Positions 52,411 through 57,674 of a DNA stretch of 64,000 nucleotides are shown here, piece after piece. Each line of letters begins with the position of its first letter. The stretch's first letter is position 1. A program made the translations under genes and the position numbers. The DNA is taken from contig JBGPTH010000015.1 in the NCBI GenBank assembly GCA_041490525.1, positions 3,867 through 67,866 of the forward strand, read 5' to 3'. The DNA comes from Nitrospiria bacterium. GTDB taxonomy: Bacteria > Nitrospirota > Nitrospiria > Nitrospirales > NS-4. The notes beneath the pieces are model-generated. The model was not told the DNA's origin. It made no database searches and worked only from the letters and a program-made list of their open reading frames with translations.

Positions 52411-53508
52411 ATGCGCCGTTGTCTGCTGTCCGGTCTGATCTGGCTCCTGTCGTTGCCGATCGGTATTCCCGCGACCGCCTCGGCCACCTGCACGGTGGAG
52501 CGGGAAGCGGCCGGGGAGCCCGCACTCTTCCTGCGGCATTTCAGTCCGGACTGCGCCCGGGGGGACCGCGCCGCGCACGCGGTTCCGGCGGCGGAGGTCC
52601 TTGCGGCCTTGAAAGCCGGCAAGGGACTCTCCCTCGAGAACGCGGTCCTCACCGGCGACCTTCTGCTCACCCAGCTCCCGTCCGCGCCGGTGGCCTCGCT
52701 CGCGCTGCCGGAACGGATTGCGACGGCGCTCCAACAGGCCAGGGTCACCGAGGCCAGGGTGATTCGCGGGCCTTTCCTGATCCGGAACTCGCTCGTGGAG
52801 GGTACAGTGGACACCCAGATGAAGCCGGATATGGTCGAGCACCGGCTGCTGGGAGACCTGGTGGTGATTCAGGGGCCGGTTGCGTTTACAGGGACGACCT
52901 TCGCCAAGACGGTGGACCTCTCCAGGACGGTCTTCCTGGGGCCGGTGGACAGTGCCGAGGCGATCTTCCTCGGCGATGCTCTGTTCCTCTCCAGTCTGTT
53001 CGACAAGGCGGCCACCTTCGAGAAGACCGCCTTTGCCGCCAACACGCGCTACTATCAGGCTGTCTTTTATGAGCCCGTCACGTTCCTCCGCGCGGGGTTC
53101 AGCGGATTGACGAATTTCCTGTCGGTCACTTTCAAGAAGGAGGCCGGCTTCTCACGGGCCTACTTCAAGATGGGAACCGGCTTTTCGGGCAGCGCCTTTG
53201 AGGGGATTTCCGACTTTTCCGAGAGCGTGTTCGAGCAGGCCGCCTTCTTCTCCCATGCTCACTTCGTCGCGGATACGTACTTCCGGCGCGCGACCTTCCG
53301 CGGCGAGGTCAACTTCTCCGACGCCAACTTCGGTGGCAAGGATGATTTTGCCAAGGTGTTCTACAAGCAGGAGCCCAACTTTACCCGGGCCAAGTTCGCC
53401 GCCCCCCGATCCTCCGCCGGATTCGAGAACCCGGTCTTTCTGGCCCTCGTGGCCGGGGCCCTCGCCGTCTTCCTCATCGCCTTCATCCTGATGTTGCGGA
53501 AAGGCTGA
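52411..53508 (+). CDS. pentapeptide-repeat-like protein with signal peptide and C-terminal TM anchor
   Basis: 365 aa from ATG 52411. It has long runs of A/S-x-F repeats (TFAKTVDLSRTVFLG...ATFRGEVNFSDANFGG) and ends with a hydrophobic helix. Confidence 0.7.
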   Translation: MRRCLLSGLIWLLSLPIGIPATASATCTVEREAAGEPALFLRHFSPDCARGDRAAHAVPAAEVLAALKAGKGLSLENAVLTGDLLLTQLPSAPVASLALPERIATALQQARVTEARVIRGPFLIRNSLVEGTVDTQMKPDMVEHRLLGDLVVIQGPVAFTGTTFAKTVDLSRTVFLGPVDSAEAIFLGDALFLSSLFDKAATFEKTAFAANTRYYQAVFYEPVTFLRAGFSGLTNFLSVTFKKEAGFSRAYFKMGTGFSGSAFEGISDFSESVFEQAAFFSHAHFVADTYFRRATFRGEVNFSDANFGGKDDFAKVFYKQEPNFTRAKFAAPRSSAGFENPVFLALVAGALAVFLIAFILMLRKG

Positions 53509-53511
53509 CCC

Positions 53512-53536
53512 CGGCAATAATATACTTGACTCAGTA
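53512..53536. repeat. left terminal inverted repeat (IR-L)
   Basis: CGGCAATAATATACTTGACTCAGTA. It begins 4 nt after the TGA of the pentapeptide-repeat gene. Confidence 0.75.
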
Positions 53537-53554
53537 AGTCAGACCTGCTATGGT
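53526..53554 (+). promoter_or_regulatory. transposase promoter candidate (TTGACT-17-TATGGT), with the -35 inside IR-L
   Basis: TTGACT at 53526-53531 and TATGGT at 53549-53554. GAGGG SD lies 6 nt before ATG 53585. Confidence 0.4.
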
Positions 53555-53584
53555 GAGGGTAACAACAACCAATGAGGGCTGACG

Positions 53585-54496
53585 ATGCTTCCCCAAACTC
53601 TTCAACAAGCCATTCGGTATTTCGCTGATCCTGAGGTCTGTCTGACCTTCGTAGCCAATCTACGTTGGCCGGAAGGCGCGGTCTGTCCGCGCTGTTCTGC
53701 CAAGAAGCCGCGCTTCATCCAGACACGCCGGATCTGGGAGTGCAAAGGCTGTCGGAAGCAATTCAGCGTGAAGGTCGGGACGATCTTCGAGGACAGCCCA
53801 ATCTCGCTGGATAAGTGGCTCTGTGCGATTTGGTTGATCGTCAATGCGAAGAACGGCGTGTCGTCCTATGAGATTGCCCGTTCCCTTGGCGTCACGCAAA
53901 AGACAGGCTGGTTTATGATGCATCGCATCCGGTTAGCCCTCCAGCGTGGAAGCTTTGCCAAGAAGCTCGCTGGTCCTGTGGAGGCGGACGAGACTTATAT
54001 CGGAGGGAAAGCGCGGTTCATGCATTCGACTAAACGTAGCCGCACACGCGGGATCACGGGGAAGGCTATCGTCATGGGACTGCTGGAGCGAAAAGGTGAG
54101 GTACGGACCAAGGTCATTGAAGCGGCCACTAGCCAAACCCTTCACCGGATGGTGAGAGACAATGTGAAAACGGGTTCCGAACTCTACACCGATGAATGGC
54201 GCGGCTACCGTGGGCTGTCTTGGGATTACGCTCACCGTGTCATCAATCACGCCGAAAAGTACGTTGATGGGATTGTCCACACTCAAGGCATCGAGAACTT
54301 TTGGAGCCTCTTGAAGCGCGGCATCAAGGGAACCTACGTGAGCGTCGAACCGTTCCATTTATTCCGCTACCTGGACGAGCAAGCCTTCCGGTTCAATGCG
54401 CGGAAAGGGAACGATCAGGAGCGATTTATAACCGCCGTTGCTGGCGTGTCTGGAAGGCGTGTCACTTATCAGCGGCTGACTGGTCTTTCAGTATAA
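53585..54496 (+). CDS. IS1595-family (ISXO2-like) DDE transposase
   Basis: 303 aa with an N-terminal zinc ribbon (CPRCSAKKPRF...WECKGCRKQFSVKVGTIFEDS) and ADETYIGG...YTDEW.GY...H..VNH in the catalytic region. Confidence 0.92.
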   Translation: MLPQTLQQAIRYFADPEVCLTFVANLRWPEGAVCPRCSAKKPRFIQTRRIWECKGCRKQFSVKVGTIFEDSPISLDKWLCAIWLIVNAKNGVSSYEIARSLGVTQKTGWFMMHRIRLALQRGSFAKKLAGPVEADETYIGGKARFMHSTKRSRTRGITGKAIVMGLLERKGEVRTKVIEAATSQTLHRMVRDNVKTGSELYTDEWRGYRGLSWDYAHRVINHAEKYVDGIVHTQGIENFWSLLKRGIKGTYVSVEPFHLFRYLDEQAFRFNARKGNDQERFITAVAGVSGRRVTYQRLTGLSV

Positions 54497-54555
54497 ACAG
54501 GCGTATGGTAAGAGACAGCGGCGCGGGAAGCGCAAGGAGGGTCGATGAAAAATTT

Positions 54556-54588
54556 CGCGGGTCAAAGACCCCATTTCTTTGACCCGCG
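54556..54588. repeat. perfect 13-bp-stem hairpin downstream of the transposase
   Basis: CGCGGGTCAAAGA ccccatt TCTTTGACCCGCG. No T-run follows, so it may be a terminator/attenuator or a protein-binding site. Confidence 0.5.
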
Positions 54589-54637
54589 CTCCGGTAGTCC
54601 CTATTTGGCCTGAGTCATGAATCCTCTCAACCTTCGC

Positions 54638-54657
54638 CTTGATCCTGGCAGATCAAG
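54638..54657. promoter_or_regulatory. palindrome CTTGATC-N6-GATCAAG upstream of the cargo operon (operator candidate)
   Basis: Perfect 7-bp arms ending 57 nt upstream of ATG 54714. TATCAT lies at 54671-54676 downstream of it. Confidence 0.4.
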
Positions 54658-54713
54658 GTGCACAGTCGAGCTATCATCAGAACCGACCTAAGCATAGCAT
54701 AGGGAGGCTGAGG

Positions 54714-55517
54714 ATGGCAAGAATTACAGTCCAACTAAAGGGTTCTCTGTCTGATGATTATCATGTTCGCCTATCGGAATTTCTCACCCAGCTTAACGCG
54801 CTCCAACAAGCTTTAGCAAATACCGAAACCGTAATTTCTGGAAGTCCGAAGCCCTCTCTATACTATCGCATCATTGACCTGACCCACTCCAGTCCTTCGA
54901 CTGTAATAGTTGAAGCGAAATCTTACAACCCTGACAACGATTTGAGCACGGATGTCGTGAACAAGTTTTTTGGTGGGCTTCGACAAATCCAAGAAACCGG
55001 GCAAATCTCTGACGATTTCGACAGGCCGACACTCGAAGCCTACAAAGGATTAAGCGCAACGCTTCGCAAGCATATCACTGAGATAAAGTTGAGCAACGGG
55101 GAGAACCAGTTTGAAATTACAAGGCGTCTCGAAGCTCGCATTGATCATATCCTTGGCGATGAGATAATCGTTGAAGGCTCTATAGAGGGAATGCTTGAAG
55201 CGATCAACCTTCACAATAACGCCAACAAATTCCACCTATTCCCATCTGTGGGTCCCCAGAAAGTTGCTTGTCATTTTCCCGATGCATTGCAACCTGAAGC
55301 GATCGCTGCTATCAAGCGGTATGTCTTTGTCAGTGGCCAAGTGAAATATCAAAGACGTGGCTTCTTTCCCCATGAAGTAGAAGTATCCACAATGGAGGTT
55401 TATCCGCAAGAAAGTGACCTGCCGACACTTGGAAGCTTGCGCGGGATCGCGCCCAACGCAACAGGAAAATTAGATTCCGTGGCTTTTATCCGCTCTCTCA
55501 GAAATGCGGCAAGGTAA
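54714..55517 (+). CDS. uncharacterised 267-aa protein upstream of, and coupled to, the PIN gene (candidate long antitoxin/sensor)
   Basis: ATG 54714 is preceded by AGGGAGG. I recognise no motif. Its 3' end overlaps the PIN gene start by 14 nt. Confidence 0.7.
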   Translation: MARITVQLKGSLSDDYHVRLSEFLTQLNALQQALANTETVISGSPKPSLYYRIIDLTHSSPSTVIVEAKSYNPDNDLSTDVVNKFFGGLRQIQETGQISDDFDRPTLEAYKGLSATLRKHITEIKLSNGENQFEITRRLEARIDHILGDEIIVEGSIEGMLEAINLHNNANKFHLFPSVGPQKVACHFPDALQPEAIAAIKRYVFVSGQVKYQRRGFFPHEVEVSTMEVYPQESDLPTLGSLRGIAPNATGKLDSVAFIRSLRNAAR

Positions 55518-55977
55518 GCCCACATACTACTGGGATGCCTGCTTGTTCCTTGCCTGGCTTAAGGATGAGCAACGAGAAGCCGGTGATATGGAAGGCCTAG
55601 CAGAAGTTATTTGGATGGTGGACCGCAACCGCGTAACTATCTCTACCTCAGTGGTTACAAAAGGAGAGATTTGGCAAAGCACTCTGACCGAGCAAGCGAA
55701 AGGGATGTTTACTCAGATGTTGAAACGGCGCAATGTCGTTCTCGTGAATCTTACTGACCCAATCTCTGAGCTGAGCGCAACGATTCGTCAATTTTATGTG
55801 GGCCGGAAAGAACAGATGGATTTACCTGATGCCCAACACCTGGCAACAGCTATTGCTTACAAAACAGATGAGTTCCATACATTTGATGATAAACTCCTAA
55901 ACAAGAGTGGAAATGTCGCGGGCTATAGACTTATTATTTGTAAACCAAAAGGTTTACAGGGAATATTGTTCGTATGA
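55504..55977 (+). CDS. PIN-domain nuclease (VapC-like toxin candidate)
   Basis: 157 aa with acidic residues in PIN-typical positions: YYWDACLF (D11), TKGEIW, LPDAQHLATAI and HTFDD. Confidence 0.8.
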   Translation: MRQGKPTYYWDACLFLAWLKDEQREAGDMEGLAEVIWMVDRNRVTISTSVVTKGEIWQSTLTEQAKGMFTQMLKRRNVVLVNLTDPISELSATIRQFYVGRKEQMDLPDAQHLATAIAYKTDEFHTFDDKLLNKSGNVAGYRLIICKPKGLQGILFV

Positions 55978-56111
55978 AAAAGAGTGGATCACAAACGCCA
56001 TTTGAACGCCTCAAGGAAGCCATGAAGCAAATTCTCTCGACCCCCAAGAAAGATCTCCCCATAAAGCCGTCTGCCAACAAGAAGGCGAAGGCCGCTAAGT
56101 CCTCGTCGTAA
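55974..56111 (+). CDS. possible 45-aa Lys-rich protein coupled to the PIN gene
   Basis: Not in the track (<60 aa). The ATG overlaps the PIN stop (ATGA). Sequence: MKKSGSQTPFERLKEAMKQILSTPKKDLPIKPSANKKAKAAKSSS. Confidence 0.4.
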   Translation: MKKSGSQTPFERLKEAMKQILSTPKKDLPIKPSANKKAKAAKSSS

Positions 56112-56127
56112 TTCCATGCTGCGGCAA

Positions 56128-56165
56128 GTATCCATTTAGATACTGCTTTGTATCTTCATTGATAC
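56128..56165. promoter_or_regulatory. two tandem GTATC-N6-GATAC palindromes (operator candidate)
   Basis: GTATCCATTTAGATAC (56128-56143) and GTATCTTCATTGATAC (56150-56165), 22 bp centre-to-centre, in an AT-rich spacer upstream of ATG 56290. Confidence 0.5.
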
Positions 56166-56289
56166 ATCGAACTGGTTCTTTGATTTGCTTATCCTTTAAA
56201 AACATTTACTTTGTAAGACGACAACGCAAGCACAGACTTTGCTTATTATGTGATGGGCAACATAACAAATTTAACAAGGAGGGTTAACG

Positions 56290-56451
56290 ATGGCAAAGGT
56301 CCCACCGATCCATTCTAAGAAGCCCTTTACACCGCAAGTTTATCACGACGATGACAAATGCACCGAACGCAACAACATCGAGAAAGAAAACATCGTCAGC
56401 GGGACCGGCGGACGCCCCAAGTGCGACCATTGCAAGCGTCTATCTGGTTAA
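56290..56451 (+). CDS. small Cys-containing protein (53 aa)
   Basis: Not in the track (<60 aa). AAGGAGGG SD 7 nt upstream. Sequence: MAKVPPIHSKKPFTPQVYHDDDKCTERNNIEKENIVSGTGGRPKCDHCKRLSG. Confidence 0.5.
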   Translation: MAKVPPIHSKKPFTPQVYHDDDKCTERNNIEKENIVSGTGGRPKCDHCKRLSG

Positions 56452-56780
56452 CTCGCTCCTAGGTCCGTGGTGCGGAAAGTCATTTCCCACCACGGACCAT
56501 GCGGAAAACCATCGTAGAAGTCCCAGACGAGCCTCACCGATAAGACTGGCAGATGGTATGTCATGGCGACTGCCAAGGCCTTGAAGCCCTCGCCGTGGTT
56601 GCCGTGGAACTTGATCGTAGGTTCCGGAAAGGTATGCGTTGCGCCGCCTTGACACGACTCGAATGTCTCAATTCCTTGCGATCTCAAGATAAGGACATAC
56701 TGCCGGATACCGGGGTCTAGCTCCATATCAACTATAGGAGCGAATGATTCTAGTTGGCGTTGTAGATCAAGATTTTTCAT
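56448..56780 (-). CDS. hypothetical protein (110 aa), last cargo gene
   Basis: The ORF start lies 2 nt inside IR-R. It overlaps the 53-aa ORF convergently by 4 nt. No recognisable motif. Confidence 0.5.
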   Translation of the reverse strand: MKNLDLQRQLESFAPIVDMELDPGIRQYVLILRSQGIETFESCQGGATHTFPEPTIKFHGNHGEGFKALAVAMTYHLPVLSVRLVWDFYDGFPHGPWWEMTFRTTDLGAS

Positions 56781-56782
56781 AA

Positions 56783-56807
56783 TACTGAGCCTAGTATATT
56801 ACTGCCG
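56783..56807. repeat. right terminal inverted repeat (IR-R)
   Basis: The reverse complement is CGGCAGTAATATACTAGGCTCAGTA, matching IR-L at 22/25 positions. Confidence 0.75.
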
Positions 56808-56879
56808 CTGACCCCCGCTCCTACCATATGTAGAAGAAAATCTTGCCTTTATCCACCAAATGTGGTAGGAACTACGCCC

Positions 56880-57674
56880 ATGACCGATCATCCGGGGACG
56901 GAAGTGGATACCCTCAGGGACGCCTACCAGATCCGATTGGACCGGTTCGAGGGCCCGCTTGACCTCCTCCTGCATCTGATCAAGGAGGAGAAGATTAACA
57001 TCTACGACATTCCGATCGCGTTGATCACCAAGCAGTATCTCGACTACATCAGCCTCATGAAATCGTTGAATTTGGAGGTGGCGGGAGAATTTCTGGTGAT
57101 GGCGGCCACCCTTATCCATATCAAATCCCGGATGCTCTTGCCCCCCGAGCCCGAGGAGGAAGAGGAGGAGGGGGAGGATCCGCGCGCCGAGCTGGTCCGG
57201 CAGCTCCTGCTGTACAGACAATTCAAGGAAGCGGCCGGCGAGCTGGAAGAGCGGGAGCGGCTGTGGCGGGAGGTGTATGCCCGCGCGCCGCTCATCGAGG
57301 AGGCCACCGATGAGGCGGAGGAGGGCCCACTGGACCTCACGCTCTCCGAGCTGGTGGGTGCGTTTCAGGACCTCCTTCAGCGCGTCCCCTCGAAGGCCCT
57401 GATTGAACTGACGGCCGAATTTCTGACGGTCAAAGACCGGATGAATTACATCCTGGAAAAGTTGGAGGAGGCGCCGGTCGTCTCCTTTGAGACGCTCTTT
57501 CTTCCCGAGGAGGGGCGTCTGGTGTTGATCGTGACATTCCTGGGGCTGCTGGAACTGATCCGGATCAAGTTGGTCCGGGCGTTTCAGCCGGAGCCGTTCG
57601 GGTCCATCCTCCTGTCGCGGGCGTTCCTGGCGGTGACGTCGAAGGAGGGCGATTCGGGGGAGAATGACCAATGA
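56880..57674 (+). CDS. scpA: segregation and condensation protein A
   Basis: About 264 aa with FEGPLDLLLHLIKEEKINIYDIPIALITKQYL...AGEFLVMAATLIHIKSRMLLP. ATG 56880 is preferred over GTG 56862. Confidence 0.9.
   Translation: MTDHPGTEVDTLRDAYQIRLDRFEGPLDLLLHLIKEEKINIYDIPIALITKQYLDYISLMKSLNLEVAGEFLVMAATLIHIKSRMLLPPEPEEEEEEGEDPRAELVRQLLLYRQFKEAAGELEERERLWREVYARAPLIEEATDEAEEGPLDLTLSELVGAFQDLLQRVPSKALIELTAEFLTVKDRMNYILEKLEEAPVVSFETLFLPEEGRLVLIVTFLGLLELIRIKLVRAFQPEPFGSILLSRAFLAVTSKEGDSGENDQ

Follow-up and report, generated by a model that had tools for sequence, protein, structure and literature searches.

In the toxin–antitoxin (TA) systems VapBC and FitAB, the tails of the antitoxins VapB and FitA block the VapC-type PIN nuclease in its active-site cleft. 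Larger VapB-type partners are also on record, namely the DUF433-containing VapB45 and fusion partners of a helix–turn–helix (HTH) domain with DUF955, and three-component TA systems have been proposed in which the PIN-like DUF4411, together with HTH and DUF955 partners, is the potential toxin (Matelska 2017, PMC5499597). TA modules are found embedded in Tn3-family transposons, among which the modules are exchanged (Lima-Mendez et al. 2020, PMC7157771), and transporter insertion sequences (tIS) of the IS1595 family combine a transposase of a zinc ribbon and a DDE_Tnp_IS1595 domain with short terminal inverted repeats (IRs), a target duplication of ~8 bp, and passenger genes inside the IRs (10.1101/2021.05.26.445724; Siguier et al. 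2009, as cited in PMC3129680). Here we describe a two-gene cassette in a 64,000-nt stretch of DNA from a Nitrospiria bacterium (assembly GCA_041490525.1, contig JBGPTH010000015.1, positions 3,867–67,866; "the window" below means this whole stretch), which codes for a 267-aa protein, termed A, and a 157-aa VapC-like PIN nuclease, termed PIN, and lies inside a 3,294-bp tIS of the IS1595 family.

The A–PIN pair shares with VapBC and FitAB the downstream PIN gene with four conserved acidic residues and the VapC fold, an upstream partner gene that is co-oriented, overlapping, and translationally coupled, a horizontally mobile cassette carried on mobile elements, and a conserved partner tail, which probably docks by induced fit. 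It differs in the partner: A has 267 residues against ~70–100 for the antitoxins, and consists of an α/β domain and an OB-fold instead of an AbrB, RHH, Phd/YefM, or HTH DNA-binding domain; nor was any conserved operator identified at the A–PIN loci. Because A is not a small DNA-binding antitoxin, A–PIN is not filed here as a member of VapBC. A first inspection of the sequence of this locus (hereafter the original prediction) had singled out A as an unusually large antitoxin-type partner that shows no RHH, AbrB, HTH, or Phd pattern. The second point was borne out, since A has no Pfam or NCBIfam match and its model shows the α/β domain and the OB-fold; as to the first, the length does set A apart from the classical small VapB, although large VapB-type partners have precedents (PMC5499597).

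As in the Tn3-embedded TA modules, a PIN-type pair occupies a fixed place beside the transposition gene, not among ordinary passengers, and is exchanged between backbones. The carrier here is, however, an IS1595 tIS with a single DDE transposase, the partner belongs to a new family and not to RHH_6, Phd, or AbrB, and an extra open reading frame (ORF), termed C, follows the pair. The predicted three-component TA systems of HTH-ImmA/IrrE (DUF955) and DUF4411 (PMC5499597) resemble A–PIN in that a PIN-like nuclease is preceded by a large partner of several domains, and such a module fills exactly the same slot, between transposase and C, in a sister element (locus L083, described below); the families are nevertheless unrelated, with A lacking HTH and metallopeptidase domains and PIN belonging to PF01850, not DUF4411. 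Among the defence systems of PADLOC-DB v2.0.0, A has no match and PIN only a chance-level match to JetA (E = 0.025). The searchable literature, which does not extend to ISfinder, holds no description of an IS1595 tIS with a PIN pair, nor any prior description of the A family or of an OB-fold partner of PIN.

Gene arrangement and conservation of the A–PIN pair

The features of the pair are as follows.

54701–54707, plus strand: Shine–Dalgarno sequence AGGGAGG of gene A, read directly
54714–55517, plus strand: protein A, 267 aa, with ATG at 54714 and stop at 55517; supported by homologues, alignment, AlphaFold2, and Foldseek
55504–55977, plus strand: VapC-like PIN nuclease, 157 aa; supported by Pfam PIN, conserved acidic residues, AlphaFold2, and Foldseek

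The ORF listing and direct reading confirmed the arrangement given in the original prediction: the 267-aa ORF of A is preceded by AGGGAGG, with a second GAGG just ahead of its ATG, and the ORF of PIN, with its ATG at 55504, overlaps the last 14 nt of A. PIN has no Shine–Dalgarno sequence of its own (upstream letters ...ccgctctctcagaaATG). As A is translated first from a strong Shine–Dalgarno sequence, and PIN only by coupled re-initiation, the amount of PIN should not exceed that of A.

A total of 88 related loci (numbered with the prefix L where individual ones are named) were fetched from representative genomes, metagenomes, exact-match look-ups, and one phage record. In every one of the 55 distinct loci with a confidently assigned A homologue and 200 nt or more of sequence behind it, a PIN of the same subfamily directly follows A, and the look-ups begun from PIN homologues found A upstream every time; the overlap of the two genes is usually 14, 11, or 4 nt. 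The pairwise identities of A and of PIN are correlated with a Spearman coefficient of 0.79 (44 distinct pairs, 946 comparisons), and the mean conservation of A (31%) is slightly lower than that of PIN (34%). These data show that A is an obligate, co-evolving partner of PIN, and that A–PIN is a self-contained, horizontally mobile two-gene cassette; the module proposed from the window alone thus recurs as a pair elsewhere. Its hosts comprise Nitrospirae, several classes of Acidobacteria, Spirochaetales, Armatimonadota, Akkermansia, Alphaproteobacteria, and Dehalococcoidia, a spread across phyla that indicates horizontal transfer.

The family of A is large. A word-indexed search gave 40 homologue clusters, and a profile search covering 1.84 billion representatives (clusters at 50% identity) gave 3,495 representatives at E ≤ 1e-3, of which 747 also passed E ≤ 1e-30; almost all are 260–280 aa long. 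A itself has no match in Pfam, NCBIfam, PADLOC, or PHROG, and 29 of its relatives have none in Pfam or NCBIfam either, so that an assignment of A to a known antitoxin or an unrelated enzyme family, which would have spoken against the original prediction, was not obtained. Against PDB sequences the profile of A gave chance matches only (E ≥ 0.35), plasmid records contained no match, and a search of IMG/VR returned one locus, a duplicate of L040.

Structure of the PIN nuclease

PIN matches PF01850 with 26.2 bits, above the cut-off of 23.6, and the acidic catalytic tetrad on which its reading as a nuclease hinges (Asp11, Glu55, Asp109, and Asp128) is intact in the profile alignment, with 90–100% conservation among 50 homologues. 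The AlphaFold2 model has a predicted local distance difference test score (pLDDT) of 90.5, and the structures that Foldseek ranks best in the PDB are VapC toxins from solved complexes of VapBC and FitAB, including R. felis VapC2 (E = 2e-6) and Shigella VapC (TM-score, 0.68/0.80). At the sequence level, a single-sequence search of PIN against PDB sequences found nothing and a profile search only a weak VapC match (E = 0.015); the sequence is thus related only remotely to the solved VapCs, and PIN is regarded as a distinct subfamily. Altogether, PIN is a VapC-like endonuclease of the Mg-dependent type with an intact active site and predicted activity, as judged from alignment and model.

Structure of protein A

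The AlphaFold2 model of A (pLDDT, 86; predicted TM-score, 0.66) consists of three parts: an α/β domain at the N-terminus (~1–148), a five-stranded barrel (~150–230) with the β1-β2-β3-α-β4-β5 order of an OB-fold (strands 151–166, 170–177, and 184–187, helix 190–198, strands 203–212 and 219–229), and a tail (231–267). The body is well folded and the tail is modelled at low confidence (pLDDT, 59–68), yet no other stretch of the protein is as conserved as the tail, which has the motif LPTLxSLRGIAPNATG...FVRxLR.

Foldseek matches of A in the PDB are to OB-folds only, at marginal E-values (~4e-3) and a probability of 0.99–1.0 for most; they include single-stranded DNA-binding proteins (SSB), OBody/AspRS, the LysRS N-domain, the anticodon-binding domains of Lys-, Asp-, and Asn-tRNA synthetases, and Stn1/Ten1. 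A phage SSB is a further match, at 1.5e-3. We therefore assign an OB-fold to the C-terminal domain of A on these marginal matches and the strand order of the model. OB-folds usually bind single-stranded nucleic acid, and binding of single-stranded DNA (ssDNA) or RNA by A is predicted. Conserved polar and aromatic residues of the OB-fold (Glu162, Asn165, His167, Asn171, Phe173, Cys186, His187, and Phe188) probably lie on strands β1–β3, the canonical ligand-binding face, as placed by the model.

Natural short forms of A consist of the OB-fold and the tail only, with PIN still next to them, namely that of L069 (145 aa) and those of L023 and L067 (160 aa), in which profile positions 1–27 are fused to 149–268. 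The homologue in L065 likewise keeps the OB-fold and the tail, and has a different N-terminus. Since the short forms retain these two parts and still pair with PIN, the OB-fold and the tail constitute the core of the partnership. The layout of a folded body with a conserved tail of low model confidence, which the mini-forms keep, would fit a partner with a docking tail.

The tail motif also occurs (SLSDLRGIAPNATGGLSSEEFVRRIREGW) mid-way in an otherwise unrelated 227-aa protein of L075 (261–944), after which no PIN follows, and the tail may be an interaction module that can be moved between proteins. The internal repetition that had been suspected for A was not borne out, as BLASTP of the N-terminal against the C-terminal half gave E = 0.18 and the model shows two different domains and a tail. 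The alignment in question pairs a helix of the N-domain (residues 103–114, 55020–55055, DRPTLEAYKGLS) with tail residues 235–246 (55416–55451, DLPTLGSLRGIA), 5 of 12 positions being identical, which is not significant; the resemblance may have arisen by chance, or the helix may mimic the tail internally.

Among viral models, Foldseek gave three full-length matches of A (E = 3e-9 to 9e-8; TM-score, 0.42–0.51): A0A8S5QA00 of BFVD, named "DUF6575 domain-containing", A0A8S5T657, and Q6NE06 of Leptospira phage LE1. DUF6575 is among the domains newly reported in anti-phage defence systems from an E. coli screen (Vassallo et al. 2022, PMC9519451). Membership of A in DUF6575 was rejected at the sequence level, with 0 of 30 A members matching the Pfam family even at E ≤ 1; the link is a lead only, drawn from a structural match to a phage protein so named, the matched part of which may or may not be the DUF6575 domain.

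The IS1595-family element of the window

The cassette lies in an element delimited by the following features.

53504–53512, no strand: target-site duplication, left copy, GCTGACCCC; read directly, identical to 56807–56815
53513–53536, plus strand: left terminal inverted repeat (IRL), GGCAATAATATACTTGACTCAGTA; found by inverted-repeat search, holds a –35-like TTGAC
53585–54496, plus strand: IS1595-family DDE transposase, 303 aa; PF12760 (1e-13), PF12762 (1e-41), NF033547 (2.6e-58)
56783–56806, minus strand: right terminal inverted repeat (IRR), whose reverse complement is GGCAGTAATATACTAGGCTCAGTA; found by inverted-repeat search
56807–56815, no strand: target-site duplication, right copy, GCTGACCCC

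The transposase combines an N-terminal zinc ribbon (PF12760) with the DDE domain (PF12762) and matches NF033547, as membership in the IS1595 family requires. IRL and IRR match at 21 of 24 positions (the search gave arms of 24–25 nt), and a perfect 9-bp direct repeat, GCTGACCCC, stands on both flanks. Based on the IRs and this direct repeat, the unit is a 3,294-bp tIS of the IS1595 family in the order IRL, transposase, A, PIN, C, two extra small ORFs, and IRR; A, PIN, C, and the two further ORFs are all passengers between the IRs, the defining feature of a tIS. The claim of the original prediction that the module is cargo of a mobile element is thereby substantiated. Target duplications of IS1595 elements typically measure 8 bp; only one copy is at hand, so the true duplication is 8 or 9 bp. 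The G+C content falls from ~62% in the flanks to 42–55% across ~53400–57000. The element is present once in the window, and every public copy of the exact element is at the same site. Its TATACTTGAC core of IRL is seen again at the ends of related elements, and its IR (GGCnnTAnTATACTTGAC; starting with GGnnaT..TAT) resembles the consensus of the ISNwi1 subgroup, of which the element is a candidate member.

The insertion lies right after the stop codon of an upstream pentapeptide-repeat gene, the TGA (53506–53508) being inside the duplication, and, with the stretch 56807–56880 in between, ~70 bp upstream of scpA–scpB, the expression of which the element could affect by this proximity.

Small ORF C and further cargo

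Three further ORFs lie between PIN and IRR.

55974–56111, plus strand: small basic ORF C, 45 aa, Lys-rich; overlaps the PIN stop in ATGA, with homologous small ORFs at the same place in other elements
56290–56451, plus strand: extra cargo ORF, 53 aa, Cys/His-rich (YHDDDKC...KCDHC), with a strong Shine–Dalgarno sequence AAGGAGGG; a called gene in public records
56448–56780, minus strand: extra cargo ORF, 110 aa; starts 2 nt from the boundary of the right IR

C had been predicted as a 45-aa basic ORF overlapping the PIN stop, which the reading of the sequence confirms, and as a part of the module, which the survey of related loci does not support. The C family (252 database hits, all of ~50 aa) has the motif P-F-E/D-x-h-x-x-x-I/L-h-x-x-P followed by a Lys-rich tail. 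Among distinct, well-flanked A–PIN loci, C follows PIN in 11 of the 13 with a transposase against none of the 25 without (Fisher p = 6.5e-8), in a count for which the C profile was made from copies borne on insertion sequences (IS) and the loci are phylogenetically related. C also occurs with other cargo (below), and it is missing from the phage copy of A–PIN. L084 and L088 show the canonical order of transposase, A, PIN, and C, and L089 carries a divergent A–PIN–C with the right IR only, near C. C thus belongs to the IS backbone and its right end, not to the A–PIN pair as such.

C-like small ORFs were also seen upstream of A, not after PIN, in L053 (4725–4880) and L054 (4859–4960), at E of ~5e-4 to 9e-4, and L053 has IRR-type motifs just past PIN (6347 and 6604); these loci may be rearranged or tandem elements. 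The 53-aa and 110-aa ORFs have no family match in Pfam, NCBIfam, PADLOC, or PHROG; the former was not found in the other fetched elements and the latter occurs in none of the other fetched loci and has a local G+C of 56%, above that of the rest of the cargo.

Related elements and other genomic contexts

IRs with the consensus GGCnnTAnTATACTTGACnnACC enclose the transposase–A–PIN–C order on both sides in the window and in L004, L013, L020, L024, L039, L068, L084, and L088, the IS1595 tIS backbones ranging from 2.6 to 5.9 kb. Among the 38 distinct well-flanked A–PIN loci, an IS1595 transposase stands directly upstream on the same strand in 13 and is absent in 25. The identities of the transposases and of A are uncorrelated (rho 0.07), L020 and L026 for example sharing 62% in the transposase and 17% in A; cassettes have therefore been exchanged among backbones.

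The sister element L083 (1690–7545, 5.85 kb) has the order IRL, transposase, HTH_3 + Peptidase_M78, DUF4411, C, further sequence, and IRR. Since it shares the slot with the A–PIN elements, the place between transposase and C accepts alternative PIN-type two-gene modules. Extra cargo of these elements sits between C and IRR; in L086 (4501–6890) and L087, C directly precedes a 611-aa N6_N4 methylase–Mrr fusion, followed by IRR. These arrangements, on a backbone recognisable by matching IRs, a related transposase, and C, suggest a modular tIS family that shuttles conflict genes. In L084 (4821–5450, minus strand) the extra cargo between C and IRR is an NYN-domain protein, a second PIN-like RNase. 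A DarT–Macro (DarTG) TA pair (L013, 5139–6855) lies ~0.8 kb from the right end of a transposase–A–PIN–C element. One 3.36-Mb contig (L001, 1–420 and 3244–5423) bears a truncated transposase–A–PIN copy, and a PIN fragment followed by IRR ~3 kb upstream, in a region dense with other transposases that also has HicB and a phage terminase, which shows multiple or nested copies in one genome.

Outside the IS lineage, the homologues are located in integrase-flanked islands, where A–PIN adjoins tyrosine integrases, and in a phage immunity region. In Pseudomonas phage vB_PaeS_AV001, A–PIN (L081, 3917–5276) stands directly after an S24-peptidase repressor (hhalign probabilities, 99.95 and 99.4). Of 116 immediate neighbours at 31 loci, the commonest are the IS1595 transposase (11) and phage integrase (6), and the rest are unrelated; DarT–Macro, Mrr, and DNA methylase genes are neighbours at some loci. 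The IR core motif was not found around the transposase-less A–PIN loci, except for right-end remnants in L016, L019, L053, L066, and L089, and the notion that these loci are mobile insertion cassettes in their own right was rejected for the lack of a flanking core motif.

Transcription and candidate regulatory sites

Two structures in the spacer between transposase and A were considered.

54556–54588, no strand: GC-rich hairpin with a 13-bp stem, ~60 nt past the transposase stop; a T-run is next to it on the minus strand only
54638–54657, no strand: short inverted repeat with arms CTTGATC/GATCAAG (7 bp) and a 6-nt non-palindromic spacer, read directly

A promoter-like site (53526–53554) is formed by the –35-like TTGAC of IRL and a matching –10. 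The spacer between transposase and A measures 8–35 nt in several elements, which implies co-transcription; the cassette is probably co-transcribed with the transposase or transcribed just downstream of it. Elements with a longer spacer (the window, L039, L020, and L083) have the hairpin ~50–60 nt past the transposase stop, and an imperfect one was seen by eye in L016, the position being conserved and the sequence not. The inverted repeat at 54638–54657, previously described as a perfect palindrome, has only 7-bp arms around its spacer; as an operator it is unsupported, since the 64-kb window contains 42 hairpins of that quality and related elements lack a conserved counterpart. Searches of 53300–57000 for Rfam families and for tandem repeats found neither, which argues against a type III system with an RNA antitoxin.

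Discussion

The finding is real and more general than could be seen from the single locus of the original prediction. We lean towards reading A–PIN as a non-canonical VapBC-like addiction or defence cassette, and infer an antitoxin role of A. In such a cassette, the invariant tail of A (L-R-G-I-A-P-N-A-T-G ... F-V-R-x-L-R) would dock on PIN and so keep the nuclease inactive, while the OB-fold would bind nucleic acid or another ligand, and thereby either tune the release of PIN or direct the nuclease to RNA. Were A lost or inactivated, after the element is lost or while a phage infects, the liberated RNase would bring about arrest of the cell, so that the cassette might stabilise its carrier IS, prophage, or island, or abort the infection; in the IS lineage it would hold a fixed slot between the transposase and C. 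This reading is favoured because the gene order and the translational coupling keep PIN at or below A, because the structural kin of PIN are TA toxins, because the contexts are mobile elements (IS, integrase islands, and phage), because a TA-type pair fills the corresponding slot of the sister IS, and because TA modules embedded in the Tn3 family provide a precedent (PMC7157771).

Several observations weigh against an antitoxin role. The one sequence that might serve as an operator, the 7-bp inverted repeat, is weak and unconserved. Autoregulation is a hallmark of type II TA systems, and A carries no recognisable DNA-binding antitoxin domain; autoregulation is therefore unsupported. Many antitoxins diverge much faster than their toxins, whereas A evolves almost as slowly as PIN (31% vs 34%). 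The OB-fold suits a substrate-recruiting subunit as well as a sensor, ordinary housekeeping genes surround about half of the loci, and PADLOC has no model for either protein, so that a defence role is without direct precedent.

A more far-reaching proposal, which we put forward tentatively and hold unlikely as a whole, is that an IS1595 lineage has a dedicated toxin slot between transposase and C, always filled by a PIN-type pair (A–PIN or ImmA/HTH–DUF4411) that is exchanged between backbones. The pair would be an integral addiction or competition device expressed with the transposase, and A a new class of OB-fold antitoxin that releases the RNase upon capture of a signalling nucleic acid by its OB face, for instance an intermediate of transposition or the ssDNA or RNA of a phage.

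Combinations of PIN with OB-like RNA-binding modules are exemplified by Rrp44/Dis3. The main alternative, conceivable if doubtful, is that A–PIN is likewise a two-subunit RNase, in which the OB-fold and an RRM-like N-domain of A bind RNA and the tail tethers the nuclease for processing or degrading specific host, phage, or transposon RNAs, with no TA relationship. The best OB-fold matches of A (SSB, the anticodon-binding domains of Lys-, Asp-, and Asn-tRNA synthetases, and Stn1/Ten1), the conserved aromatic and polar residues that the model would place on β1–β3, the nearly equal rates of A and PIN, and the missing DNA-binding antitoxin domain all accord with this idea, and PIN domains with OB-like modules recur elsewhere, for example in PIN–TRAM proteins (PIN.COG4956, PMC5499597). 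However, the gene order, the coupling that holds PIN at or below A, the patchy spread across phyla, and the carriage on IS, phage, and islands are the signature of a selfish TA or defence module; the equivalent slot of the sister IS holds a predicted TA-type module, and the nearest structural relatives of PIN are all TA toxins.

That A–PIN, with C, serves as an accessory transposition function, for example as a structure-specific nuclease and an ssDNA-binding protein that process intermediates or regulate the transposase mRNA, we consider improbable. The conserved order of transposase, A, PIN, and C inside the IRs of at least seven elements, the 8–35-nt spacer ahead of A in several of them, the –35-like box inside IRL, and the inclusion of FEN-type DNA nucleases among PIN-like domains (PMC5499597) would suit such a function, but 25 of the 38 well-flanked distinct loci have no transposase, the pair is also found in a phage immunity region and beside tyrosine integrases, the phylogenies of transposase and A are discordant, the sister IS swaps the pair for the unrelated ImmA/HTH and DUF4411, and the PIN fold is of the VapC type, not the FEN type. 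Most improbable is that C is the real antitoxin, in a toxin-first order as in HigBA, with another role for A: C overlaps the PIN stop in ATGA and is short, basic, and kept at that place in IS-borne copies, yet it is absent from 25 of 25 transposase-less loci and from the phage copy, so that PIN is maintained without it, and it also stands after the DUF4411 gene and before the methylase–Mrr gene, and with the IS right end kept nearby in L089.

The family of A is large (~3,500 clusters at 50% identity), always accompanies a VapC-like RNase, and is represented by no model in Pfam, NCBIfam, PADLOC, or PHROG. It would escape TA finders built around small DNA-binding antitoxins, and PIN-based conflict systems are therefore probably under-counted in soil and sediment phyla, here Nitrospirota, Acidobacteriota, Chloroflexota, Armatimonadota, Verrucomicrobiota, and Alphaproteobacteria. 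With a copy next to the repressor of a phage whose host can be cultivated, the system is open to direct tests. Should A prove to be an antitoxin of the OB-fold type, PIN toxins would be controllable by nucleic-acid sensing, and not by proteolysis of a labile DNA-binding antitoxin. The fixed layout of transposase, PIN pair, and C extends the idea of TA modules integral to the transposition module, so far argued for Tn3-family transposons only, which would here reach the simplest mobile elements.

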